From assembly GCA_039683575.1 (NCBI GenBank), contig JBDKRC010000343.1:1-21796 (forward strand): DNA of 21,796 bases, read 5' to 3'. Of this stretch, positions 1 through 18,469 are shown one piece after another. Every line of letters begins with the position of its first letter. Within the stretch, counting starts at the first letter, position 1. The notes below the pieces were generated by a model. The model was not told the origin of the DNA. It searched no databases and saw nothing but the letters and a program-made list of their open reading frames with translations. A program made the translations under genes and the position numbers. The DNA comes from Armatimonadia bacterium (GTDB lineage: Bacteria > Armatimonadota > Zipacnadia > Zipacnadales > UBA11051).

Positions 1-2
1 TT

Positions 3-162
3 CTGTAGGGCGGGGGCTCGTCCCCCGCCGCTCGGGATGGGTCGCAGACGTTCGGCGGGTTACGAGGCCCCCGCCCTACAGCGGAAGGGCAGACAACGTT
101 CGGCGGGGTACGAGCCCCCTGCGACGCAGACGTCGCTACGCCTACAGCGGAAGGGCAGACAA
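3..162. repeat. GTAG-family REP cluster (REPIN/BIME-like): inverted REP pair plus a third interrupted copy
   Basis: GTAG (5-8) is followed by the hairpin GGCGGGGG-ctcgt-CCCCCGCC (9-29). An inverted copy cggcgggttacgaggcccccgccCTACag lies at 53-81. A third copy at 101-147 carries an internal inserted hairpin. The unit acgttcggcggg...cctacagcggaagggcagacaa is tandemly repeated (about 48-96 and 96-162). Confidence 0.8.
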
Positions 163-199
163 ACAAAAAGGCGGGTTCACCGGAGAGGTGAACCCGCCT
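161..199 (-). terminator. Rho-independent terminator of the minus-strand selenoprotein operon
   Basis: 13-bp perfect stem AGGCGGGTTCACC (169-181) / GGTGAACCCGCCT (187-199). The A-rich tract at 161-168 reads as a U-tract on the minus strand. It lies about 20 nt after the TAG at 221-223. Confidence 0.85.
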
Positions 200-220
200 G
201 GGGTACAGCTTCTTAGCTGT

Positions 221-1012
221 CTAGTAGACCGTTGCCTTCGTCTCCCCCTGCGCCTGTCCCAACGGTCCCAGCTCGGCGGTCGCTTTCACTGTATACTCTC
301 CCGGTTGTATTCGCACGGAATACGCACAGGAGCCGCCTCAGCCAAAGCCTAGCCGGTCCAGCTCCACCGTGGTGTCGCTGGCTACCTGGCCATTGGCGCT
401 CTGCGCCACGACGCGGACCCGCGGGCTGCCCTGCGGGGTCCGGCAGTTGATTGAGAAGTCGCCCGCGCTGAGCCGGACGGCTACGCCGAGCGAGCCGGTG
501 CCGGCGCGGGCGGTGATGTTGGTGGTCAGGGGCTCTGCGGTGGCAACCACGGCCTCTTTGAGGTCGGTGAAGAGTTGGAGGTCCTTGCGGAACTCATACT
601 CCCACTTCTCCTCGCCGCGGGCCAGTTGCGGCCGCAGCACGCTCGAGATCCGTTCGCCGCCATAGGGGGCGGTGGAGCGTGTGAGGGACAGAGTAACCGG
701 ATTTTCGGTTCCTTCCCCAAACTTGTTGTATGGGGTCTGGAGGCTGAGCGTTGGGAAGACCAGCATCTGGCCCTTCAACTCTGGCACGAGCTTTTCGCTC
801 GCCTCAAAGACGCCGTTGAAGTTGGTATCCGCGTAAGCCACGTCGTAGGGACCGTCGTCGCCCTTGGAGCGGTCGAAGGCTATCGCGAGGACCTTCGTGC
901 CGTCCTGGGTAACGGCGATCTTAGTGTAGACGGGCTTGCCAAGGAATTGTACCGCTTCCTGCGCCAGCAGTACCTGGCACAGAAACAGCAGCGCAAGTAT
1001 TGATATCACCAT
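221..1012 (-). CDS. Secreted putative selenoprotein with UGGSC (UxxxC) motif; Sec at TGA 338-340; 263 aa from ATG 1012
   Basis: Signal peptide (ILALLFLCQVLLA-QE) and a DxNxNG-type loop (YADTNFNG). The frame stays open after the TGA: LGFG-U-GGSCAYSVRIQPGEYTVKATAELGPLGQAQGETKATVY-TAG(221-223). SECIS-like hairpin at 307-323, terminator just after the TAG. The start may be ATC 1030. Confidence 0.8.
307..323 (-). promoter_or_regulatory. Putative bacterial SECIS element (copy 1)
   Basis: Minus strand GTATTC-cgtgc-GAATAC. The stem starts +15 and the loop +21 after the TGA. G at loop position 2 is followed by U. A possible lower stem is CTCCTG/CGGGAG. Confidence 0.75.
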
Positions 1013-1060
1013 GGTATACCGACCTTTGATGTGGCACTCCTCCTTTGCCTTCTACACTTA

Positions 1061-1077
1061 CTGACAAGACCTGACAA
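1061..1077 (-). promoter_or_regulatory. Direct repeat TTGTCAG-N3-TTGTCAG, possible transcription-factor site
   Basis: CTGACAA at 1061-1067 and 1071-1077 (10-bp period), in the gap upstream of the SD AAGGAGGAG (1045-1037). Confidence 0.3.
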
Positions 1078-1110
1078 TCACAAGTTCGCCCTGCCCTGAG
1101 GCAATTCCTG

Positions 1111-1932
1111 TTACGGCGACCACTTGGTCTCTGCAGTTTTTACCTCGAAGGGACACTTCGGCATAGTCGGCTTGAGGGTTAGCTGGCCCGTGGCATGCGC
1201 TGGTACTCGCCCGGAGTACGAACAACTGCCGCCTCACCCATAGGAGAAGCGCCCGCTCCAGACAAGGTTGCCCTTGCTGTCACGGGCTTCAAAGGAGGGC
1301 GGTTGGGCACGGGGGGTAGAGCTGATCGTGGTGTAGTGCCCGCCGCGGTCCTTGGTCTCCAGGCGCAGGTAGACGTTGCCCGAGGTCTGCCGCGGCATCC
1401 GTGCGGTGGTGATCTGCACTGTGAAGGGGGGCCCCACCAGCAGTTGTCGTTGCGGGGCTGCCACGTCCCTTGCCAGCGGCCCCGAGAGGGAGGTTCTGGC
1501 CTCCCACCGGACCTTGTCGGCCTGCCTGGTGATGACGCAGGTGTTCAGCCTGGTGTCTGCGGGCACCGTCACGGCGCCGTTTGTGGCTTTGAACCGGTAG
1601 CGACGCCCCCTGTCGTAGCCGTCCAGGTAGCCCTCGCCGAGATCTCCCACCTTCAGTGAAAATGTCTTGCCCTGGAAGGTCTGGGGGTTGAAGTCACTGG
1701 GGCTGGTGCCCTGTTGATGACCTCTCACATAGGAGAAAGCCAAGAGCAGTGCGGTGGCGGCGCCGACTGCCCAGAGGGCGCCGATGCCCGACAGCACATA
1801 GCCGACGGCATTCTGGCGGTGTCTGCGGATCGATATGATGCCGACAATGAGGGGGACGAGCCAGCCGAGGAACGCGACTAGCCCAATACCGAGGTAGAGC
1901 AGGACGAAGACCACACCCACACCCATGTCCAT
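1111..1932 (-). CDS. Membrane-anchored putative selenoprotein with UGGSC (UxxxC) motif; Sec at TGA 1234-1236; 273 aa
   Basis: Two N-terminal hydrophobic segments, then a soluble beta-rich domain. The frame stays open after the TGA: SGRFSYG-U-GGSCSYSGRVPAHATGQLTLKPTMPKCPFEVKTAETKWSP-TAA(1111-1113). SECIS-like hairpin at 1203-1219. GGAG upstream of the ATG. Confidence 0.8.
1203..1219 (-). promoter_or_regulatory. Putative bacterial SECIS element (copy 2)
   Basis: Minus strand GTACTC-cgggc-GAGTAC, at the same +15/+21 offsets as copy 1. A compensatory U-A to C-G pair change relative to copy 1. Confidence 0.75.
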
Positions 1933-1952
1933 CGTGTCTCACTCCCGCTGCG

Positions 1953-2723
1953 TCACTTGACGCCGAGCTTCAGACACCTTGCCGTGCAGTCCAGGCAGCG
2001 GACGCACTCGCCATTGTTCATCTCAGCCATCGGGTCGATCTCTACGGGGCAGCGCTCAGCGCACTGACCGCAGGTGTTACAGCTTTCGTTCTCCTGGCTG
2101 ATCCGCCAGAAGGAGAAGCGGTTGAACAGCGAGAGCATGGCCCCAAGCGGGCAGAATACTCGACAGAAGCCGCGCGAGGCGACTGCCGCCAACGCAATTA
2201 TACCCAATAGCACGGCAACGCGCACCATAAACATTATGCGCCAGGGCGAAGAGGCGCCCATGATCGCCCACGGAATGGCCGATTCGAGGGTGCCCACGGG
2301 GCAGAGCGTGCAGTAGCTGACGTTCAGATGGGGGTAAACGAATGGTATGGCGAAGACCAGGCCGCCGAGGAGGACCCACTTGGTGTAGCCCAGGAAGCGG
2401 GGCAAGCGGACCTTGCGGCCCGGGATCTTGTGCAGGAGGTCCTGCAGCAGTCCGAAGGGGCAGACAAACCCACACCACAGGCGCCCAAAGAGCGTGCCGG
2501 CGAGGCCGATGATACCAAGGGCGATGAACGGGAAGATGCGGAGGGTGGAGAAGTTGACCAGTACCCCCACCGGGCACGCGAACGTCGCCGCCGGGCAGGA
2601 GTGGCAGTTCATCGCCGGGACGCAGATGCTGCGAAGCTGGAAGAAGTTGGCGTTCAGCCCCAGCAGGGCGACGAACTGGATGAAATAGCGCGTACGAGTG
2701 ATGCGCCTGAGCTTCTCAAGCAT
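1953..2723 (-). CDS. Membrane 4Fe-4S binding protein (NapH/MauN/YccM-like, Fer4_5 type)
   Basis: Several TM helices. CxxxCP motifs (WCGFVCPFG, FCRVFCPLG), N-terminal CVPAMNCHSCPAATFACP, and C-terminal ferredoxin motifs CNTCGQCAERCP and CVRCLDCTARC. Confidence 0.9.
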   Translation of the reverse strand: MLEKLRRITRTRYFIQFVALLGLNANFFQLRSICVPAMNCHSCPAATFACPVGVLVNFSTLRIFPFIALGIIGLAGTLFGRLWCGFVCPFGLLQDLLHKIPGRKVRLPRFLGYTKWVLLGGLVFAIPFVYPHLNVSYCTLCPVGTLESAIPWAIMGASSPWRIMFMVRVAVLLGIIALAAVASRGFCRVFCPLGAMLSLFNRFSFWRISQENESCNTCGQCAERCPVEIDPMAEMNNGECVRCLDCTARCLKLGVK

Positions 2724-2751
2724 AGGTTCCTAAGCTGTCTTTCGGCTGCTG

Positions 2752-2770
2752 CAACGGGACACGCCCGTTG
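2752..2770 (-). promoter_or_regulatory. Putative bacterial SECIS element (copy 3, intergenic)
   Basis: Minus strand CAACGGG-cgtgt-CCCGTTG. The stem starts +16 and the loop +23 after TGA 2786-2788. Same CGKGY loop as copies 1 and 2, with no U-tract after it. Confidence 0.7.
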
Positions 2771-2779
2771 TTTGAGGGG

Positions 2780-3043
2780 CTAAAGTCAAGTGGGGCAGGC
2801 TTTGTCAGCCTTGCCGCCCTTGGCATCTTTGGTCTTGCTGGCCTGCGGCGAGATCAGTTTGCCGTCGGCAGCGCGCTGCACAGAATGCGTCAGGCTGTCT
2901 TGCAGGACCGAATATTCGCTTTTGCTCGTGCCGGAGACGTCGAAGGTCACGCCCATGGTGGTGTACGTGAGCAGGCCCCCGAAAACAAGCAGGAGGAGCA
3001 ATAGAGCGAGCCAGCGATAGCCGCGTTTCGGTGTGGTTTCCAT
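2780..3043 (-). CDS. Small single-pass membrane putative selenoprotein with C-terminal CxxU (CPTU-L-stop); about 87 aa
   Basis: METTPKRGYRW plus a hydrophobic helix. The 3' end reads GCC TGC CCC ACT TGA CTT TAG (A-C-P-T-U-L-stop), followed by a SECIS-like hairpin. Start uncertain (ATG 3043, or 3085 which overlaps the upstream gene). Confidence 0.72.
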
Positions 3044-3071
3044 GGTCTGTAGCCTGATGGTAGCTCGCGTC

Positions 3072-3932
3072 CTAAGCGCGTGCAAGTATGTATTCCTTGA
3101 ACGTCAGCCACTCTACCCTCTGTTCCGCAAACCACGCCAGAAGCTCCTCGTACAGGCGCCGGACCGAATCCCATGAAGCGGTCATGGCTCTATAGTGGCT
3201 GCCAAAGATGATGACACCCTCCTCGCCTGCCTGTTCCATGAAGTTGGAGTACTCCGACTTGAACAGCGCAAGCCGCTCCTGGTACTGCTCGGGCGGCAGT
3301 GTGCCAATGATGTAGTCCTCCATGCAGGGGACCTCAACCACGCCGGGCGGCTCGATCCAGGGCACACAGGGGTAGTCCGGCTGCCAACGGTGCAGGCTTT
3401 CGTCTCCCGTGAGAGTATAGGCGGTCATGGTGGGGTTGACGCCGCGGCTGGATGAGCAGCTGATGCCAACGTCTGCCAGCGCGTGGTACAGGTTCGCACA
3501 GACCCCAAAGCAGGGGGCGCGGAAGACCAGTGGGCGCTCGCCGAAGAGGCTTTCGTAGGCTTCACAGCCCTGCCGCAGGCGCTCAGTGAGCCGTGCCGCC
3601 GAGTGAGCTTCCTCATAGCGCTCCCGGTTCGCCTCGTACTCCTCGAAGGGGCGTGGGTTCGCGCGACGGGTGCTAGGCTGAGGCAGGCCGAATTCCAGGC
3701 AGGAGCCGTGGGTGAGGCCATGAAGCTGGAAGTCATGCCCAAGATCGCGGGCCCATAGCAGCGTATCCCGCCAAAGCTCGTGGGCCTCGGCATACTGCGC
3801 CGGACGCGGCACCCAGAAGAAGGTCCCGCGTACGCCCACCTCGTTGAGCCACTCGATGACCTGGCGAAAGCCTGCAACGGCCTGTGGGTCGGTCGAGACT
3901 CCGGCATCATCGTTGGTGAAGATGGCAAGCAT
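3072..3932 (-). CDS. Polysaccharide deacetylase family protein (CE4/NodB-like)
   Basis: CE4-type motifs FTNDD, GTFF, HDFQLHGLTH and FRAP. No signal peptide. Confidence 0.8.
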   Translation of the reverse strand: MLAIFTNDDAGVSTDPQAVAGFRQVIEWLNEVGVRGTFFWVPRPAQYAEAHELWRDTLLWARDLGHDFQLHGLTHGSCLEFGLPQPSTRRANPRPFEEYEANRERYEEAHSAARLTERLRQGCEAYESLFGERPLVFRAPCFGVCANLYHALADVGISCSSSRGVNPTMTAYTLTGDESLHRWQPDYPCVPWIEPPGVVEVPCMEDYIIGTLPPEQYQERLALFKSEYSNFMEQAGEEGVIIFGSHYRAMTASWDSVRRLYEELLAWFAEQRVEWLTFKEYILARA

Positions 3933-4725: not shown

Positions 4726-6723
4726 CTAGGCGAACCACATTAGGTAGCGCTTCGCCACTTCCTCGCTGAACGCTCCCACAATCCCCCAGATGCCCCCTGC
4801 GAAGAGTACATGCCCGATTGCCAGACCCATGAACACCGGCATGGCGGTGCGGTAGGTCTGTGGGCCGCCGAGCCGGAGAATGAGTGTTTTGCTCAGCCAT
4901 GCAACGAAGGCTGGGAACCAGATTGAGTGACCGTAGCTGCCCGATAGCGCGAGGCCGAGGGGATTGAGCGGGAAGCGCAGGTACTTCACGCGCAACAGCA
5001 GCATGGCCACCGTCAGGGCAAGCCCCACGAGTCGCGCCACGTTGGTCTGCATGTCCATCGGTACTGCGGTGAAAGCGCGGGTCTTGAGACGGTCGTAGTT
5101 GGCGAGGGCCTGCCGTGTCCTGTAGCCGCCCTCGGTGCTGCCGCCGTCGAGGACGTTGGCCCCGAAGCTGTAGTAGGCCTGCATGTGCATGAACAGGCCG
5201 ATGGCGAGGCCAATGGCCAGGCCGTAGATGATCGTGGTGAGCACCTGCTTGCGGCCGAGATCGGCACGGTAGCCCATTCGCACTGCTTCGATCTCAAACG
5301 CGCCAAGCTGGGGGAACGTCATGCGGCTCATCGCGCTGATGGTGGCATAGACCGCTTCGGAGCGCAGGGCTGCGTTGCTGAAGTGTCCGGTCGTGGGTTT
5401 GAGCGCCAGAATGGTCTCGGCAACCTCTTCGCGGGGCACCACATAGTTGATCGGCAGGCCCGTCTGGGCGCGCACCCGGATGTACACGAGGGCCACGCCG
5501 AAGCTCAGGATGACGTAGGCCAGGGCCAGACCAAGGCTCATCCCGGCGCTCACGCAGAAGGCGACAAAGCCGCCCATGCCGACCATCAACCCCCAGAAGG
5601 CCCAGCGTGAGGGTATCAGCTCCTCCTTGTCCCATTCCGGCCTGGCCCCGCCGAGGGCGCTGAGGGCTACCTGCTTGAGATGCTTGCGGCCAACATACAA
5701 CAGGAAGAAGATCAAGCCGACATACGACCCCATGCCCTGCGCGCGCTCGAAGGGGAAGTTCCCGATCTGGTACCCGCCCAGTGTGGCGAAGAAGTTCTCG
5801 AAGCGGAATAGCAGGAAGAAGCTCCAGATGGACAGCAGCACATCCACCGGCACCAGGTAGCCCAGGCCGATGATCTCGGGCCGGAAAGTCATGGTCATGG
5901 GGCGCAGGGCCGTCCAGGGGCGCTCGGTGAGGAGCTTATTCAGCTCGTAGGTCTGCCCGATGGCCGGGGTCTGGGGTGAGAAAGCATGGGCGATGTTGGA
6001 GCCGTTGTAGATGGCGGCGATACCTACCCCGATCCAGAACAGCGGCTGGCGCAGTAGCGAGGTCTGGTCTTTGGCGGCCGGGTCCGGTGCGAGGTGTAGC
6101 GGCAGTTCCGCCAGGGGGAAGGTCAGGCGCTCGTGCTCCGACCAGGGGCGGCGGAAGAGCGATACCATGCACAGCAGCGACAGGCCGATGAGCATGAACA
6201 GGCCGCTCCACATCGCCAGCGGCACCGCCCACGCGTGCCACGGAAACGCTCCGCTGGGGCTGCCCTCGTAGAAGTTGGTGATGACCTGCGAGTCTGAGGG
6301 CGTCATCCACTCCGGCAGCAAGTCGGCGAAGGCGCCGTATTCATTGCCCGGGGCGGCAAAGTAACGGGCCACAGTCAGCGAGGCCAGTAGCTGCCGCACC
6401 CCGTTGGCCTCCAGCGTCACCAGGGCCAGGCTCATGGTGATGTAGATCAGGAGCGCTTGCTTGCGGTACTTGGAGGTGCGGGTGAGGCGGTGGAAGCCGT
6501 AGCCAATCGCCGTCATGGCCACCAGCGCGGTCAGGGCCGGGATTGGCGGGGCACCCTCGGCCACCAGGATCGTGAAAGCGATGAGCGAGGTCTTGCGCAC
6601 CCAGATGGCGCTGATGAGCAGGAACACCGTGGCCCAGATCAGAACAGGTGGCAGGGCAGCCTGCGCGGTGTCGGGGGCCTCGTCGGTCAGCGGCGCGGTA
6701 GTCTTGACGGTTGGCTGATTCAT
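4726..6723 (-). CDS. Polytopic membrane protein, DUF6785/DUF6784-like (putative transporter)
   Basis: 665 aa with many TM helices. Motifs W...WAVPL..W, RRPWSEHERLTFPLA, RVRAQTG, RFPLNPLGL, WLSKTLILRLGG..YR..PVFMGL are recognised from this family. Confidence 0.75.
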   Translation of the reverse strand: MNQPTVKTTAPLTDEAPDTAQAALPPVLIWATVFLLISAIWVRKTSLIAFTILVAEGAPPIPALTALVAMTAIGYGFHRLTRTSKYRKQALLIYITMSLALVTLEANGVRQLLASLTVARYFAAPGNEYGAFADLLPEWMTPSDSQVITNFYEGSPSGAFPWHAWAVPLAMWSGLFMLIGLSLLCMVSLFRRPWSEHERLTFPLAELPLHLAPDPAAKDQTSLLRQPLFWIGVGIAAIYNGSNIAHAFSPQTPAIGQTYELNKLLTERPWTALRPMTMTFRPEIIGLGYLVPVDVLLSIWSFFLLFRFENFFATLGGYQIGNFPFERAQGMGSYVGLIFFLLYVGRKHLKQVALSALGGARPEWDKEELIPSRWAFWGLMVGMGGFVAFCVSAGMSLGLALAYVILSFGVALVYIRVRAQTGLPINYVVPREEVAETILALKPTTGHFSNAALRSEAVYATISAMSRMTFPQLGAFEIEAVRMGYRADLGRKQVLTTIIYGLAIGLAIGLFMHMQAYYSFGANVLDGGSTEGGYRTRQALANYDRLKTRAFTAVPMDMQTNVARLVGLALTVAMLLLRVKYLRFPLNPLGLALSGSYGHSIWFPAFVAWLSKTLILRLGGPQTYRTAMPVFMGLAIGHVLFAGGIWGIVGAFSEEVAKRYLMWFA

Positions 6724-12804: not shown

Positions 12805-15800
12805 TTAGAAGCGGTACTGCAACCCCGCCTGAACCTGCCGCCCGCGCTCCGGGTAGCCCTGGTAGAAGCGGTATTCCCTATCCAGAAGGTTCTCCGCCGT
12901 CACGAAGACATCCGTGTGCAGGTTGAACTGTCGTGCTACTGAGAGGTTGAAGAGGCTGTACGAGCCCAGCCGCTCGGCGTTGAGCTGGTCCGCATAGCGC
13001 TTGCCAACGTGCTGCCAGATCAGCGCCAGCCGCCAGCCCTCGGCGTTGAGATAGTCCAGCCGGGCCTGAGCCGCGAGCTTGGGCTGGTAGGGCACTTCCC
13101 GGCCCGCAGCGTCGTCGCTTTCGCTGTCGGTACAGCGCACCCATACCCCGCCGGACAGGTCCCGCCCGAGCCAGCGTTCGAGTTCGAGCTCAGCGCCCTT
13201 GGTGCTGGCCGAGTCAAGCACGAGGGGGGCCGCTCCGGCCGCCCACGCGGGGTCTTGCAGGTCCACGAGCAGGTTGCGCAGATCGCGATGGAACAGCGTC
13301 GCCCGCAGCAGCGAACCGGCGGGTTGGCATTCGTATTGCAGTTCGTACGACTGGCTGTAGCCGCCGCGCGCGAGGTCGAGGGGGGACACGAAGGGCCGCG
13401 ACGCCCAAGCCTCCACCGGGGAGACCTCCGAGACATCGTCGGCCAGAAGGGGCCGGGTGAGCAGCACGAGAGTGCCATTGTCCGATACTCGCCGCCGCAC
13501 GGACACCTTGGGGCGGAACACCGGCTTGGTATCATCAGAAATGGCGACCCGGCCCCCGGCCAGAATCCGCGTCCGCGGGTCCAGCAGCCACTGGTACTCC
13601 AGATAGCCGGTCACGAAATCGCGGTTCAGGACGTTGTCGAAGCTGTGGTGCTCCGGTGACAGTGGATCGGCGGTGGGTATCGCCAGCACGCCCGAGACCG
13701 ACCGCCGCTCGCGCGCCAGCGCCACACCGGCCACAAGGTCGGTGGACGGGCCATAGCGCTTGTCCAGCCGCATCTCCATCAGGGGGCCCTGTGAGGCGAG
13801 CCGCAACTGCGGGAAGAGCTTTGGATCAGTGATTGCCGCGTCCGGGTTGTTGTCGTGCTGCGTCATGTTGCGGTAGCCGGCTCTGAAAGTGAAGTCAGCG
13901 GTATCGGAGAGCGCCGAGCGGGTGAGGTAGTTGAACTCCTGTCCGTCGAAGCGGCTCGTGTAGTTGGTATCGCTGGCAGCGCCTCCGGCCAGCGCCTTGC
14001 CGGGCTGTGGACGGCTATCCCAGTTCGCGCTGAGCAGCAGCGAGGTGGTGCGGTCGGCAGACTTCTGCTGGCCGACGATGCCTACCACCGTCTGGTTGTC
14101 GAAATGGGTGCGGGAGCGGTCCCAGTCACCCTCTTGATGGTCTCCGGCGAGATAGTAGCTCGTCTGGCCGTCATCATCCCGGCCATTGGTGCGAAGCTGG
14201 GCGTACATACCGTCGCCACCGGCGGCAATGGCCTCGGTGCGGGCATAGCCGCGGTTGTCCACGATGACGGAGGGCTGCAGGCTGATCGCCTTCAGGCGCT
14301 CACGCTGGGCCTCCTGCGAGCGTCCCAGGCGGAAGTAGACCTCCGCCAGATGCATCCGCGCGAGAGCGTAGTTGCTGTCATTCTCCAGAGCCTGCCGCAA
14401 CGCCGCCCAGGCCTTGTTCACCCGGTTCTGCTTCAGATAGACCCGGCCGAGCGTCGTGTACGTTCGGGCAGAGCGCTCGCCAAGCTTGACCGCCAGCTCG
14501 CCCTCATGGACGGCCTGCGCGAACTCATTGGCCTCCAGATGCGCCAGGGCGAGGTTCGCACGTACGAGGCCCCAGTTCGGCTGAAGCTGCAGCGCGCGGG
14601 CAAACTCGGTCTTCGCCTCGTCGAGGCGCCCTTTCTGCAGATACACGGTGCCGAGGTTGTTGTGCGCGGCAGCCTGGTCCGGATCGAGCGCCACGGCTGC
14701 TTCCTGGGCCTGCAGAGCCTGCCCCAGCTTGCCCTGGCGGGCCAGGGCCAGGCCTTGGCCCGTCTGCGCGGCAACCAGTTTCGGCTGCAGTTCAAGGGCC
14801 TTGTTGAAGGCCTTCTCGGCTCGCTTGAGATTGTTCTGTGTCAGGGAGATCATGCCGAGAAGCTGCCAGGCAGGGGCTTGTCGAGGATCGAGAGACAGGG
14901 CCATCTCGGCCTCGTGCATCCCGCCGGTCATGTCGCCCTGCGCCACCGCCACGTTTGCCGCCAGGACATGCGCGGTGGGGGAGTTCGGCGCCAGCTTCAA
15001 GGCCGCTTGCGCCTCGTTTTCGGCCTCCTGCAGGTCGCCGGCATAGAAAGCGGCGGTTCCCAGGCTCTCGTGCGCCAATCCGGAGCACGGTGCCAGTTGC
15101 ACGGCCTTGCGAGCCGACCGCAGGGCGGCCTCGCCCTGCTTTTCGGCCAGTTGCACCGCCGACAGGTAGGCAAGCGCCCGGTAGTCAGGCGAGGGCTGCT
15201 GAGCGGCCTGCGTGAGCGCCTTCAGCGCCGCGGCAGAGTCGCCACCACGGATGCCAACCAGCCCCGCAGCGACGAGCACGTCGGGGTCTGCTGGCGCTGC
15301 TGCCAGCGCCCGTGCGACCAACTGCGCTGCCTGCGCCTGGTTCTTGTCCGCCAACGTCGCCGTCAGCGCCAGAGCCTGCCCGGCCAGCGCTGTCGGGCCA
15401 TTCCCAACCTGCTGGAAGGTCCGCAGAGCCTCGTCACTGCGCCCCTGCTGCAGCAGGTTGTAGCCCAGCTTCATCTGCAGGGGAGCGGGGTTCGATAGCT
15501 TCGGCAGCGCTTCTCGGTAGGCCGCGTCGGCCGCCTCCAGGTCTCCGGCGTCATGGAGCAGGTCAGCATAGGCAACCTGCGCGGCGACGTCGCCGTCGGC
15601 TGCCTTCTGACGGGCGGCGTTCAGTTGCTCGGCAGACGTGCCGGAAGGGCTGTACAGCTTCTCAAAGCCCATCCAGACGTTGTCGAGGGAGGCTTCCCAT
15701 TCGATGTACGAGGAGGGGTCAACGCGCATCGGTCGCGTCGGCGCAGTCTTCGCCGTTGCCGAGCTCTGTTCGTTGGCATGGAGAGTCACAGCGCCAAAGT

Positions 15801-16272
15801 CGTTGTGGAAGTCAACAGTGCCCTCTATAACCGTACAGATCGTGCGTCCGTCGGCGCTGACGTCCATGACGAACTGGGTCCCCTTGGCGGCGGCAGTGGC
15901 CCCGGCAGACCCGATCTCAAGCGGTGTCGCGCCGATCAGCCAGAAGAGGATGCGTCCCGTGAGCACGTTCAGGCGTGAGCCCTCCCTGGTGGTCGCAGGG
16001 ATCACGAGGTGGGACAGTGGCATCATCTCCACCCGGCCGCCGCCCTCCAAAGCGATGGTAGCGCGGGACTTCTGATAGGTCTGGACCTCGTCCCTGCTGT
16101 ACAGTGGCATGGCGCTGGCAGCGGGTGTCCACCGGGCGCCCGTGTGCTTGACTTTCACCAGATTCTGCACCCGGACAACCGTTGCCCGCCGGTGGGACTG
16201 TGCCCACAGGGCGGCCCACGGCCCAACGGATAGTGCGACCACGGCTAACAGCGGAACTATCGTTTTCCTCAT
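12805..16272 (-). CDS. FecR domain + TPR repeats + TonB-dependent-receptor-like beta-barrel fusion
   Basis: Signal peptide, FecR-like region (LYSRDEVQT...ATAAAKGTQFVMDV...CTVIEGTV) and many TPRs (AAAHNNLGTVYLQKGRLDEAK). TBDR-type C-terminus (VTAENLLDREY...GRQVQAGLQYRF, terminal Phe). Confidence 0.85.
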   Translation of the reverse strand: MRKTIVPLLAVVALSVGPWAALWAQSHRRATVVRVQNLVKVKHTGARWTPAASAMPLYSRDEVQTYQKSRATIALEGGGRVEMMPLSHLVIPATTREGSRLNVLTGRILFWLIGATPLEIGSAGATAAAKGTQFVMDVSADGRTICTVIEGTVDFHNDFGAVTLHANEQSSATAKTAPTRPMRVDPSSYIEWEASLDNVWMGFEKLYSPSGTSAEQLNAARQKAADGDVAAQVAYADLLHDAGDLEAADAAYREALPKLSNPAPLQMKLGYNLLQQGRSDEALRTFQQVGNGPTALAGQALALTATLADKNQAQAAQLVARALAAAPADPDVLVAAGLVGIRGGDSAAALKALTQAAQQPSPDYRALAYLSAVQLAEKQGEAALRSARKAVQLAPCSGLAHESLGTAAFYAGDLQEAENEAQAALKLAPNSPTAHVLAANVAVAQGDMTGGMHEAEMALSLDPRQAPAWQLLGMISLTQNNLKRAEKAFNKALELQPKLVAAQTGQGLALARQGKLGQALQAQEAAVALDPDQAAAHNNLGTVYLQKGRLDEAKTEFARALQLQPNWGLVRANLALAHLEANEFAQAVHEGELAVKLGERSARTYTTLGRVYLKQNRVNKAWAALRQALENDSNYALARMHLAEVYFRLGRSQEAQRERLKAISLQPSVIVDNRGYARTEAIAAGGDGMYAQLRTNGRDDDGQTSYYLAGDHQEGDWDRSRTHFDNQTVVGIVGQQKSADRTTSLLLSANWDSRPQPGKALAGGAASDTNYTSRFDGQEFNYLTRSALSDTADFTFRAGYRNMTQHDNNPDAAITDPKLFPQLRLASQGPLMEMRLDKRYGPSTDLVAGVALARERRSVSGVLAIPTADPLSPEHHSFDNVLNRDFVTGYLEYQWLLDPRTRILAGGRVAISDDTKPVFRPKVSVRRRVSDNGTLVLLTRPLLADDVSEVSPVEAWASRPFVSPLDLARGGYSQSYELQYECQPAGSLLRATLFHRDLRNLLVDLQDPAWAAGAAPLVLDSASTKGAELELERWLGRDLSGGVWVRCTDSESDDAAGREVPYQPKLAAQARLDYLNAEGWRLALIWQHVGKRYADQLNAERLGSYSLFNLSVARQFNLHTDVFVTAENLLDREYRFYQGYPERGRQVQAGLQYRF

Positions 16273-18311
16273 TCTGTATGGCTCCCCGTCACTGGCATAT
16301 CGTTCGTAGCTTTGGTCGGCAGGGTGAGAGTGAAGATCGAACCCTCTCCAAGAGCGCTCACCAGCCCGACCCTTCCGCCGTGGGCCTCCATAATCCTGCG
16401 TATCGAGAACAGCCCGATACCGGTACCGGGGATATTCATCCCCTCCGGTACGGCGCGTTGGAAACGGTTGAACAGGCGAGCTTGTCCCTCGGGGCTGATG
16501 CCCAGCCCATGGTCAATCACACGAACCGAAACCTGGCCGGGCTCACGCTTGACCTCGACTATGATGGTGCCGCCGCCGGGCCAGTATTTGATGGCGTTAT
16601 CGAGCAGATTGTTGAGCGCGCGGCCCAGATAGCGGGGGTCACCGTCCACCCACACACCCTCTTCCGGGGCCTGCACCTCAACCTTGTGTATTGGGCTCTT
16701 CAGCCCCTGAGTTGTGGCCAGGTCATGCGCCAGAGCGGCGAGGTCAAAGGATCTGACATCCAGTGGCAGTTCCCGGTTAGGATCCGCCACCAGCAGCCCG
16801 TCAATGTCTCCCAGGGCCATCTGCACCTGCTGCTGGATGCGCTGGATCAGCTCCGGGGTAGGGGCGGCGCCGTCCTTCTGCTGCTGCATGCGCAGCACCT
16901 GAGCCAGCGCATTAATCGCCGCCAGAGGTTGCTTGAGATCGTGCACCAGGGTGGTGGTCACGGCGTCGCGGGCCTCGATGTTCTGCGCGAGACTCGCCGC
17001 CGTGCGGCGGCCGCAGGCGTCTGCCCACACCGCTCCTGAGATGCCCGAGAGGAAGATCGCTACGAAGGGTATGAAGGAGTAAAGCCAGTAGTCCATGCGG
17101 GACAGGGCCTGAGCCGCCACGACCAGCACCAGCAACTCGGCCAGTGCCAGGTCAACTGCTCTGGCAGGGTGAAGATACCGGAAGGCAGCGATAGTGCCGA
17201 AGCTGGCGGCAAAGATGATGAGCCACACGAGCCAGAGCGGCACGGGTCTCATGTAACGCCCCTGCATGACCGTATCCAGCGCGTTCGCGTGGACTTCCAC
17301 CCCCGTCATGGCCTTCAGACCCGCCTGCGAGAGTAGGGGGTACCTAACCTCCCGCGCGGGCTGTCCCACCGGCGCAAGCTGTTGGTCCTGCATTGTCCCC
17401 ACCAGCACGATCTTGCCCTTGAACCACTCCCTGCGGTCTCTGGCGGTGGCCTCCAGTACTCTGCGCATCGAATACATAGGAAAGGTGCCGATATTGCCGG
17501 CCCAGTTGATCAGCAGAGCATGTTTGCTCTCGCGATCCGCTTCGCGGGTCCTTTGCGGAGGCAGCAACACAACACTCTCGCAAGTCCAGACCGGGATCTG
17601 GGTGCCCGTGCATTCGACCAGACTATCGCTGATCTCCTCCGGAAGATCCTGGCTGCGGCCGCGGTAGGCGGCATAGCAGGCCAGAGCAAAGGGCGGGCGC
17701 ACCATGGACAGTGTCACCGGCGCGGGTGGGTTGGCTATGGGGTCGCGCTGAATCAGCCGCACACCGTGAACAACCCCGCGCGGGTTGTACAGCACCGGTG
17801 AGGAGACCACTGGTCGCTTGAGTTGCTGAAAAGAGATCGTCTCGAGGAAGTTGAATTTGCCGGGAGTGGGATTGGTGCAGCTAACCACTACGGTCTCCTG
17901 CGGCATCTCCAGGGCGGCCAGGAGTTGGGGGTCATGGTCGTGGCAGGGTACCTCGAAGACCATGTCGAGACCCACCACCTTCGCTCCGGCCAGCTTGACA
18001 GCCTTGATGGCGGTAGCCAGTTCATCCCGTCGCACAGTCGTACACGTGCAGGTGGCAGGCTGTTGGCCCCGGAGCTTCTGCTCGCGGAAAGCCTCAATCT
18101 CTTCAGTCTCTATGCCGATGAGTGCAATATCAGGGTGTACCTGGCGAGGCGGACGTAGTTGGAACCACTTGTCCAGGATGGAGAACTCTGGTGGGGAAAG
18201 CATAGGAGCGGCGCGGCAGCACAGAAACGTGATGACGAAGGCGAAGACCACCGCCGCGGGCCACTGGCTGCTCCAACTGGCCATTAGCCCGCTGCGTCCA
18301 GACCACCGCAT
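16269..18311 (-). CDS. CHASE2-domain sensor histidine kinase
   Basis: CHASE2 motifs (IALIGIE, AGAKVVGLDMVF, FKGKIVLVG, MTGVEVHANALDTV) followed by 3 TM helices. H-box VHDLKQPL, N-box NLLDNAIKY, DHGLGI and GTGIGL. ATGA overlap with the next gene. Start uncertain (18359, 18332, 18311 or 18284). Confidence 0.9.
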   Translation of the reverse strand: MRWSGRSGLMASWSSQWPAAVVFAFVITFLCCRAAPMLSPPEFSILDKWFQLRPPRQVHPDIALIGIETEEIEAFREQKLRGQQPATCTCTTVRRDELATAIKAVKLAGAKVVGLDMVFEVPCHDHDPQLLAALEMPQETVVVSCTNPTPGKFNFLETISFQQLKRPVVSSPVLYNPRGVVHGVRLIQRDPIANPPAPVTLSMVRPPFALACYAAYRGRSQDLPEEISDSLVECTGTQIPVWTCESVVLLPPQRTREADRESKHALLINWAGNIGTFPMYSMRRVLEATARDRREWFKGKIVLVGTMQDQQLAPVGQPAREVRYPLLSQAGLKAMTGVEVHANALDTVMQGRYMRPVPLWLVWLIIFAASFGTIAAFRYLHPARAVDLALAELLVLVVAAQALSRMDYWLYSFIPFVAIFLSGISGAVWADACGRRTAASLAQNIEARDAVTTTLVHDLKQPLAAINALAQVLRMQQQKDGAAPTPELIQRIQQQVQMALGDIDGLLVADPNRELPLDVRSFDLAALAHDLATTQGLKSPIHKVEVQAPEEGVWVDGDPRYLGRALNNLLDNAIKYWPGGGTIIVEVKREPGQVSVRVIDHGLGISPEGQARLFNRFQRAVPEGMNIPGTGIGLFSIRRIMEAHGGRVGLVSALGEGSIFTLTLPTKATNDMPVTGSHTE

Positions 18312-18440
18312 TGGTTGCCGATGATGCACCACGCGCAGGCCCCCTCGGCCTAGGAGCATCTTGTGCGCAGTCTGCACCCGGCGCAGGCGTCGAAGCCTGC
18401 TCGAGCACCGCTGCGGAAGATGCGGAAGAGGAAGATTTGC

Positions 18441-18469
18441 ATGATATAACTGCACGCAAATCCTGTCAA
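18441..18469 (-). promoter_or_regulatory. Sigma70-type promoter for the CHASE2 kinase operon
   Basis: TTGACA (18469-18464), a 17-nt spacer, then TATCAT (18446-18441). Confidence 0.75.

Follow-up and report, generated by a model that had tools for sequence, protein, structure and literature searches.

In a 21,796-nucleotide (nt) stretch of DNA from an Armatimonadia bacterium (GenBank assembly GCA_039683575.1, contig JBDKRC010000343.1, positions 1 to 21,796; hereafter the window), two neighbouring genes on the reverse strand, here called A and B, each contain an in-frame TGA codon. Judged from sequence comparisons and structural models, both are very probably selenoprotein genes in which this TGA is decoded as selenocysteine (Sec, U), and they would belong to a large family of exported beta-sandwich proteins. 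This assignment is strongly supported because the Sec machinery of the genome, hairpins resembling a selenocysteine insertion sequence (SECIS), the pairing of Sec with Cys at the site, coding conservation past the TGA, the predicted fold and the co-occurrence with sel genes all point to it. The same evidence upholds the proposal of a new selenoprotein family that had been made in a preliminary description of the window.

Gene A (221..1012, −) runs from an ATG at 1012 to a TAG at 223..221 and, when read through its TGA (338..340, −), encodes a two-domain beta-sandwich protein of 263 residues, predicted to be exported, with Sec at position 225 in the motif LGFG-U-GGSC. The 224 codons up to the TGA at 340..338 end in LGFG and are followed by 38 open codons (GGSCAYSVRIQPGEYTVKATAELGPLGQAQGETKATVY). 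Gene B (1111..1932, −), from an ATG at 1932 to a TAA at 1113..1111, encodes a membrane-anchored paralogue of 273 residues with Sec at position 233 in the motif FSYG-U-GGSC; here 232 codons ending in FSYG precede the TGA (1234..1236, −, read as 1236..1234) and 40 open codons follow it. The residues after the TGA are GGSCAYSVR in gene A and GGSCSYSGR in gene B, and the Ser of G-G-S-C is encoded by UCC in one gene and by AGU in the other. The strings and coordinates quoted in the preliminary description for both read-throughs were all present in the sequence, as were the differing Ser codons. Its statement that the two proteins share little obvious similarity elsewhere needs correcting, as BLASTP aligns them as paralogues along the C-terminal ∼140 residues (139 aligned, 29% identical, E 2e-7). 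It had also called both proteins exported. This suits gene A, which has a hydrophobic, signal-like N-terminal segment, but has to be modified for gene B, which lacks a cleavable signal peptide and starts with a predicted two-helix transmembrane hairpin followed by two beta-sandwich domains. The stretch between the helices is positively charged (RRHRQ), which suggests that the domains of B face outward. Residues 45-67 of gene A form a conserved LDES-x-G-x-G-x-GYD-x-x-Y-x-D-x-N-x-NG stretch that is seen in the N-terminal domains of A-type and long family forms, and the N-terminal domains of the long forms contain repeated D-x-N/D-G-N/D-G loops. By eye, these sequences look like calcium-binding loops; the only profile match was a weak one to GEVED (E 0.06).

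Protein-level selection beyond the TGA, claimed earlier from the two genes, was borne out by a codon-position comparison of relatives aligned in 88 ungapped pairs. The three codon positions showed differences of 0.24/0.17/0.45 after the TGA and 0.28/0.20/0.53 in the part that lies past the hairpin described below, and 0.31/0.23/0.50 in the 30 codons upstream of the TGA. The amino-acid change rate was 0.31 in the extension versus 0.38 upstream. By these patterns the extension appears to evolve as coding sequence, and it is at least as conserved as the region preceding the TGA.

AlphaFold2 (AF2) models built with family alignments had a predicted local distance difference test score (pLDDT) of 92.7 and a predicted template modelling score (pTM) of 0.85 for gene A, and a pLDDT of 87.2 and a pTM of 0.73 for gene B. 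Residues 226-263 of A and 234-273 of B were modelled as the two to four strands that close the C-terminal sandwich, with a pLDDT of ∼95, and the Sec was placed in a short inter-strand turn with the Cys four residues away. The structural matches were generic fibronectin type III (FN3) and immunoglobulin-like (Ig-like) domains (Z 8.4-10, root-mean-square deviation 2.2-2.9 Å over 76-89 residues) and reached residue 261-263. The C-terminal domain is thus predicted to be incomplete without the residues after the TGA. The preliminary description had taken the extension of gene A for the last strands of an Ig-like sandwich, which agrees with the model and with the FN3/Ig matches, and had held that a domain predicted complete without the extension would speak against its proposal; in the AF2 models the extension is needed for the fold.

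The five nearest database proteins are 216-245 residues long, are 46-89% identical and every one ends at ...G[FY]G; gene callers therefore truncate all of them at this codon. Six-frame translations of 401 genomes of the phylum, searched with a profile built from 12 C-terminal domains, gave 96 matches in 58 genomes, 89 of them with exactly one TGA and seven with none. Re-scanning of the matching DNA with a hidden Markov model returned 115 domain hits, corresponding to 99 distinct domains, a number that exceeds the 96 matches because the flanks hold extra copies and some loci overlap. TGA occupied the motif in 93 of the 99. Among the six TGA-less domains, two have Cys (HFG-C-GGVC, encoded by TGC, and GFG-C-ATC), one has Ser and three have lost the motif. 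A TGC aligned to the UGA site was found in locus L030. This search and codon tally, which the preliminary description had proposed, came out in favour of its reading. Of 91 distinct Sec forms, 50 have Y and 38 have F at position −2, 72 have G, 16 T and three A at position −1, and 87 have G and four S at position +1. The Cys lies at +4 in 74 forms, at +5 in six and at +6 in one. From this alignment the family motif is best written as [YF]-[GT]-U-G-[GF]-x-C. The UxxxC spacing emphasized earlier is consequently usual and not obligatory: it holds for 74 of the 91 forms and fails for the seven with Cys at +5 or +6 and for the ten with none up to +6. The genome of the window also encodes an 865-residue protein with a distant TGA-less copy of the domain (E 8e-6; G000:C235:54901-55164, locus L110:1036-3630) that no longer has the Sec motif.

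A single-protein query of one-genome-per-species contigs found no relative. When the same contigs were searched for the DNA pattern [FY]G-TGA-GG-x-C-x-YS, 88 stretches were obtained, of which 72 contained the family domain; U stood at the motif in 92 of 104 domain hits, and 12 were unresolved by the regular expression. By record titles, the 72 loci belong to Armatimonadota, Verrucomicrobiota (including Lentisphaerae, Victivallales and Kiritimatiellia), Planctomycetota (including Phycisphaerales and Tepidisphaeraceae), Sumerlaeota and WS1. No family domain was detected in the other 16 stretches; nine of these are in unrelated taxa and look like chance matches, and the rest are mainly Lentisphaerae, Verrucomicrobiales, Victivallales, Planctomycetota and Latescibacterota records. 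With 89 of the 96 matches in the phylum and 92 of the 104 domain hits from these loci carrying it, the recurrence of TGA within the motif is far beyond chance. A family profile, which included one stray 33-residue row, was further searched against 1.84 billion representative proteins (E ≤ 0.001) and gave 2233 hits (50%-identity representatives). The residue at the site was tallied for the best 150 of these 2233, which contained 148 domain hits of at least 25 bits. In 65 of the 148 the protein stops just before the site, at its own C-terminus. Cys was the commonest sense residue (32), followed by S (9), G (8), R (7), W (5), T (3), L (3) and A (2), with six further residues occurring once each and eight hits unplaced. 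One Gly form is an NCBI record translated with table 11, and one Arg form represents a 14-member cluster. In the ESM Atlas, the open reading frame (ORF) read with table 11 matched clusters of unnamed 'hypothetical protein', mostly from Planctomycetota, with scores up to 0.86, which we treat as leads only.

The genes selA, selD and selB and a gene for tRNA-Sec (73.7 bits, gathering score 47) are clustered on another contig (C331) of the same genome, which comprises 6.23 Mb in 352 contigs and is 96% complete. A third family member lies 2.7 kb past the tRNA-Sec gene on that contig (∼10.8-12.1 kb; locus L023:478-1821); it has 448 residues, a signal-like N-terminus and the motif GFG-U-GGGC. No match to FdhA (TIGR01553) was found in this 96%-complete genome, and the family may therefore be a main reason why the Sec machinery was kept there. 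In the phylum as a whole, selA (E ≤ 1e-30) is present in 217 of 401 genomes. Among the 55 genomes with TGA-containing members it is present in 53, and the remaining two (G116, G218) have selB above the curated cut-off. The three genomes with only TGA-less members (G037 and G379 with Cys, G322 with a degenerate form) have neither selA nor selB above cut-off. Although the tables were compared by eye and related genomes are not independent, this distribution of sel genes is what Sec decoding would predict. The third family member is approached by a converging gene for a DUF6785-like membrane protein (L023:1895-3292, −), which is a 31%-identical paralogue of a DUF6785/DUF6784 membrane protein encoded near the A/B pair (4726-6723, −). 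Weaker or partial matches to this protein occurred in four further family loci, and it may be a recurring neighbour.

Both genes contain a SECIS-like hairpin downstream of the TGA, at 295..336 (−) in gene A and at 1185..1233 (−) in gene B. Each has a 6-bp apical stem at an equal offset, GUAUUC-CGUGC-GAAUAC in A (323..307, with a lower stem around it) and GUACUC-CGGGC-GAGUAC in B (1219..1203), and the two stems differ by a compensatory change of U:A to C:G. The hairpins lie ∼17-33 nt past the TGA, inside the codons for x-Y-S-x-R. Of 91 distinct genes, 86 have an uninterrupted stem of 6 bp or more whose loop of 3-7 nt is centred 20-30 nt after the UGA, compared with 12.9% of 30,518 control windows from the same genes. 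The 5' arm occurs in 46 sequence variants; the G-rich loops are mostly CGUGC, GGU, GUG, CGUGA and CGGGC. In a covariation test on a MAFFT alignment, 82 cells with changes on both sides of the stem were counted versus 34 in shuffled alignments, and the observed value was reached in 0 of 500 shuffles; a control in which the stem was slid by −2 was also high. The folding-energy percentile was modest (median 0.16). An Rfam scan of positions 1..3000 of the window (E ≤ 10) returned no SECIS family, only chance-level microRNA and small nucleolar RNA matches.

Directly upstream of gene B, at a distance of 20 nt, lies a gene on the same strand for a NapH/MauN/NosR-like membrane 4Fe-4S protein (1953..2723, −), which ends at an ordinary TGA. 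Its product matched Fer4_5 (E 8e-18) as well as Fer4_7 and Fer4_9, and scored below the equivalog cut-offs of NapH (59 versus 213 bits), NosR (53 versus 1000) and CcoG (18 versus 317). From these profiles it can be placed among the NapH/MauN/NosR Fer4_5 ferredoxins at superfamily level only. Homologues of this protein with 38-58% identity are encoded directly upstream of B-type genes at many loci. Gene context was mapped over 154 partly redundant loci with a family hit, a few kb each: selA, selD or selB was present in 33, a NapH-like gene in 20 and both in 16. A recurring order on one strand is napH-like, B-type, A-type (not always present, at times with more copies), selA, selD, selB. Neighbour clustering was noisy owing to antisense shadow ORFs in GC-rich DNA, and only the NapH-like neighbour and one other were kept. 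The latter is a CarboxypepD_reg plus thioredoxin-like protein, whose gene precedes long forms with the motif YG-U-GFTC (L062, L074, L075, L079, L083, L085, L095, L097, L101) and in which PYDPSC or PYLAPN stands in place of the CxxC. Directly upstream of selA, loci L116, L197, L184, L149 and L177 have between three and seven family genes in tandem, and in L128, L178 and L186 selA and selB flank a family gene.

Three metatranscriptomic libraries of a single study (no more than three samples, labelled wastewater) yielded contigs that matched the region at 95-100% identity and bridged the TGA of gene A (279-1038, 240-616) and that of gene B (1167-1333). Parts of the region, for example 2197..2640, had no cover in these libraries. 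The contigs are consistent with a transcript that reaches a terminator-like hairpin behind gene A (169..199, −; 13 bp, nine of them GC, followed by the T-run TTTTGTTTGT), and are silent on translation. This hairpin begins 21 nt past the TAG of gene A, matching the ∼20 nt given earlier for the distance between extension and terminator. Word depths in the RNA libraries were 81-330 over gene A (240-1160) and ∼8-22 over gene B and the NapH-like gene (1167-2184), and the depth of a DNA run was flat at ∼6. This may hint at a more abundant gene A transcript, although contig depths cannot rank genes.

Several results weigh against the assignment as selenoproteins or narrow what it can mean. RNAalifold gave only three pairs on the mixed-register alignment; this low number and the high slid control arise because the stem register shifts by one nucleotide between subfamilies. 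The minimum free energy of the whole segment was no better than in shuffles for the two window hairpins (z −0.15/−0.09, in GC-rich DNA), and since the hairpin overlaps the conserved Y-S-x-R codons, its conservation may be partly protein-driven. Foldseek against the PDB and VIA-align returned generic tandem Ig/FN3 matches only and no functional relative. Ten of the 91 Sec forms lack a Cys within +6, and about one third of the full-length homologues among the best 150 of 2233 have neither Sec nor Cys at the site, so that not all members can have a strictly catalytic Sec/Cys role. Two genomes of the same genus have no NapH-like gene at their B-A pair, which a DUF2334 gene abuts instead, and the RNA-library contigs, all from one study, may contain DNA. 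Against this background, the simplest alternative would be that the TGAs are true stops, giving proteins of 224 (A) and 232 (B) residues, and that the conservation downstream belongs to an element of the 3' untranslated region or to a separate small ORF. Gene callers do end all database copies at the TGA, 65 of the 148 hits tallied end at the site, and TGA is an ordinary stop elsewhere in the window. We nevertheless regard this explanation as extremely unlikely: the third-position bias of divergence persists past the TGA and even past the hairpin, the domain is completed by strands from the extension, modelled at a pLDDT of ∼95, homologues with a Cys codon read straight through the same motif, TGA forms are confined to genomes with selA or selB, and the position and covariation of the hairpin fit a SECIS. 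Very unlikely, too, is a reading of the TGA as an ordinary amino acid (Gly, Trp, Arg or Cys), whether through a suppressor or near-cognate tRNA or through a variant genetic code. Such a reading would accommodate the homologues whose aligned residue is Gly (8), Arg (7) or Trp (5), the position of the site in a Gly-rich loop, and the table-11 Gly record. TGA is, however, the normal stop of four other genes in the window, including the gene directly upstream of B, and is therefore not reassigned here. A complete Sec machinery is present and often adjoins family genes, no motif-keeping member in the phylum has Gly, Trp or Arg (the non-TGA forms being two Cys, one Ser and three that lost the motif), and all three genomes without sel genes carry only TGA-less forms. 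Cys is the commonest sense residue at the site, and W, G and R are one base away from TGA and may mark lineages that lost Sec. The preliminary description had counted a residue such as Trp or Gly in homologues as grounds for rejection. We consider this ground too strict: such residues do occur in some homologues, and Cys is still the most frequent sense residue. The variants without Sec or Cys are real; they weaken a claim of universal catalysis and leave Sec decoding of the TGA forms unaffected.

If the genes are selenoprotein genes, SelB and tRNA-Sec would decode the TGA as selenocysteine, guided by the short SECIS hairpin downstream, and translation would continue for 38-40 codons to complete the FN3/Ig-like beta-sandwich. 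The family would be extracytoplasmic, with some members soluble behind a signal-like N-terminus, others membrane-anchored, and longer forms carrying additional N-terminal domains. An exposed, Gly-flanked selenol, usually with a Cys at +4 that could form a selenylsulfide, would then be a reactive centre outside the cytoplasm. By analogy with NapH, NosR and CcoG systems, electrons for at least the B-type members probably come from the co-encoded NapH-like Fe-S membrane protein. Candidate substrates would be a chalcogen species, a thiol/disulfide or a soft metal, and as its main client the family would be what maintains the Sec machinery in these genomes. The likeliest function would be that of a periplasmic Sec/Cys redox or chalcogen/metal-handling module, and within this range generic thiol/selenol redox chemistry would rank before the handling of selenium or another chalcogen, and the latter before soft-metal binding.

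Binding of a soft metal such as Cu(I) or Hg(II) by the Sec loop, which together with the NapH-like protein would make a split metal reductase or chaperone of the CcoG type, seems unlikely, although parts of the evidence lean that way. The CxxxC site of SCO1/SenC has the UxxxC spacing, and CcoG/FixG joins a Fer4_5 membrane module to an Ig-like domain. The neighbour matches Fer4_5 and, weakly, the CcoG model (E 0.0015). Several of the selenoproteins catalogued in Table 1 of PMC13188914 are metal-binding. Against this reading, the searches returned neither FixG_C nor SCO nor any other metal-binding domain, the invariant columns include no conserved His or Met partner, and the second ligand Cys is absent in ten of 91 members. 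Alternatively, the family may handle selenium itself, capturing or reducing periplasmic selenite or Se(0) on the Gly-flanked selenol with electrons from the NapH-like protein and so feeding SelD. We consider this unlikely as well. It would account for the family being inside selA-selD-selB operons of Armatimonadota, Planctomycetes-Verrucomicrobia-Chlamydiae (PVC) phyla, Sumerlaeota and WS1; in 33 of 154 loci, from several phyla, family genes directly adjoin selA, selD or selB or lie among them. A reactive residue flanked by Gly on an Ig-like fold is also reminiscent of the carrier arm of SoxY. In a more specific and likewise improbable form of this idea, the family and its NapH-like partner would be a selenium-acquisition module, in which a selenol carrier forms an Se-Se or Se-S adduct that is passed inward for SelD. 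On the other hand, requiring selenium to acquire selenium poses a bootstrap problem, no transporter gene is consistently adjacent, and main selenoprotein genes are commonly linked to sel genes without a role in selenium supply, as PMC4807772 notes for fdhA near sel operons in Proteobacteria.

The proposed selenoproteins resemble bacterial selenoproteins with a SECIS in the coding region (FdhA, Sec-containing peroxiredoxin- and thioredoxin-like proteins) in the in-frame UGA, the near hairpin with G in its apical loop, the presence of selA, selB, selC and selD in the genome, the existence of Cys homologues and the linkage to sel genes. They differ from most catalogued selenoproteins, which have a thioredoxin-like fold, by the FN3/Ig-like beta-sandwich, by the preponderance of Sec over Cys (93 versus 2 in 99 distinct domains), by their extracytoplasmic location and by their often multicopy or tandem arrangement. 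A thioredoxin-fold UxxC/CxxU oxidoreductase was rejected, as the AF2 models are all-beta sandwiches, FN3/Ig domains are the best matches and the spacer has three residues. The U-x-x-x-C spacing is shared with TsoA (NF045695, LULAxC; Table 1 of PMC13188914), and a short Sec motif with Cys or Gly also occurs in the UGSC protein (NF041046), the DUF1573 UGC protein (PF07610) and 'hypothetical protein DG' (NF049953, GUxG). None of these four models matched any of 11 family members, and their motif context and domain differ. SoxY is likewise a periplasmic Ig-like sandwich with a Gly-flanked chalcogen residue (GGCGG in SoxY, G-U-G-G here), but its Cys sits on an extreme C-terminal arm, whereas the Sec is internal, 38-40 residues from the end, and is followed by two to four strands. 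Membership of the SoxY carriers was dismissed on account of this internal Sec and the lack of a sequence or profile match. The upstream Fer4_5 membrane protein together with an anchored Ig-like protein resembles a split form of the Fer4_5-plus-Ig arrangement of CcoG/FixG and NapH/NosR-type systems; unlike in CcoG/FixG, the Ig-like partner is a separate selenoprotein without a FixG_C match. SCO1/SenC, to whose copper site the preliminary description had compared the motif, has only the i/i+4 spacing of two chalcogen ligands in common. It combines a thioredoxin fold with a distal His, while the present family has an FN3/Ig-like fold and lacks the second Cys in ten of 91 members; it was set aside because the fold differs and there is no Pfam match.

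The 11 family members had no match in NCBIfam r20 and matched no Pfam family at threshold, with only weak sub-threshold matches to GEVED and MG2. Table 1 of PMC13188914, which lists 119 selenoprotein families, contains none with the present motif or fold. No description of the family was found in the full-text literature, a search that left the supplementary tables of BSepDB and deep-Sep uncovered, where an earlier mention is possible. The family is large and apparently undescribed. Gene callers would tend to miss it, as would homology-based selenoprotein finders that need abundant Cys homologues. Should the assignment be true, hundreds to thousands of 'short hypothetical proteins' would be truncated selenoproteins (2233 profile hits, many ending at the TGA), a non-thioredoxin, exported beta-sandwich scaffold would join the selenoproteome, and Armatimonadota and the PVC phyla would gain a major selenoprotein. 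The linkage to sel and NapH-like genes would offer a testable system for the role of a periplasmic selenol, and the family may show how selenium enters the Sec pathway, a step that a 2026 review calls unresolved.

Further features of the window lie on both sides of the gene pair. Upstream of the NapH-like gene and on the same strand are a small ORF (2786..3085, −; 99 residues, TTG start, one hydrophobic segment), whose place in the unit is uncertain and which has weak relatives at the same position in three other loci, and a DUF2334/polysaccharide-deacetylase-like gene (3072..3932, −). Just past the terminator of gene A, positions 1-160 hold two copies of a ∼60-nt repeat (GTCTGCCCTTCCGCTGTAGG...CCCGCCGAACGT), and a contig from the DNA run departs from the window at position 159, near these repeats. 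Farther upstream, a 1155-residue protein (12805-16272, −) combines FecR, many TPR repeats and a TonB-dependent-receptor beta-barrel, and its gene shares 4 nt with the end of a gene for a CHASE2 histidine kinase (16269-18455, −).

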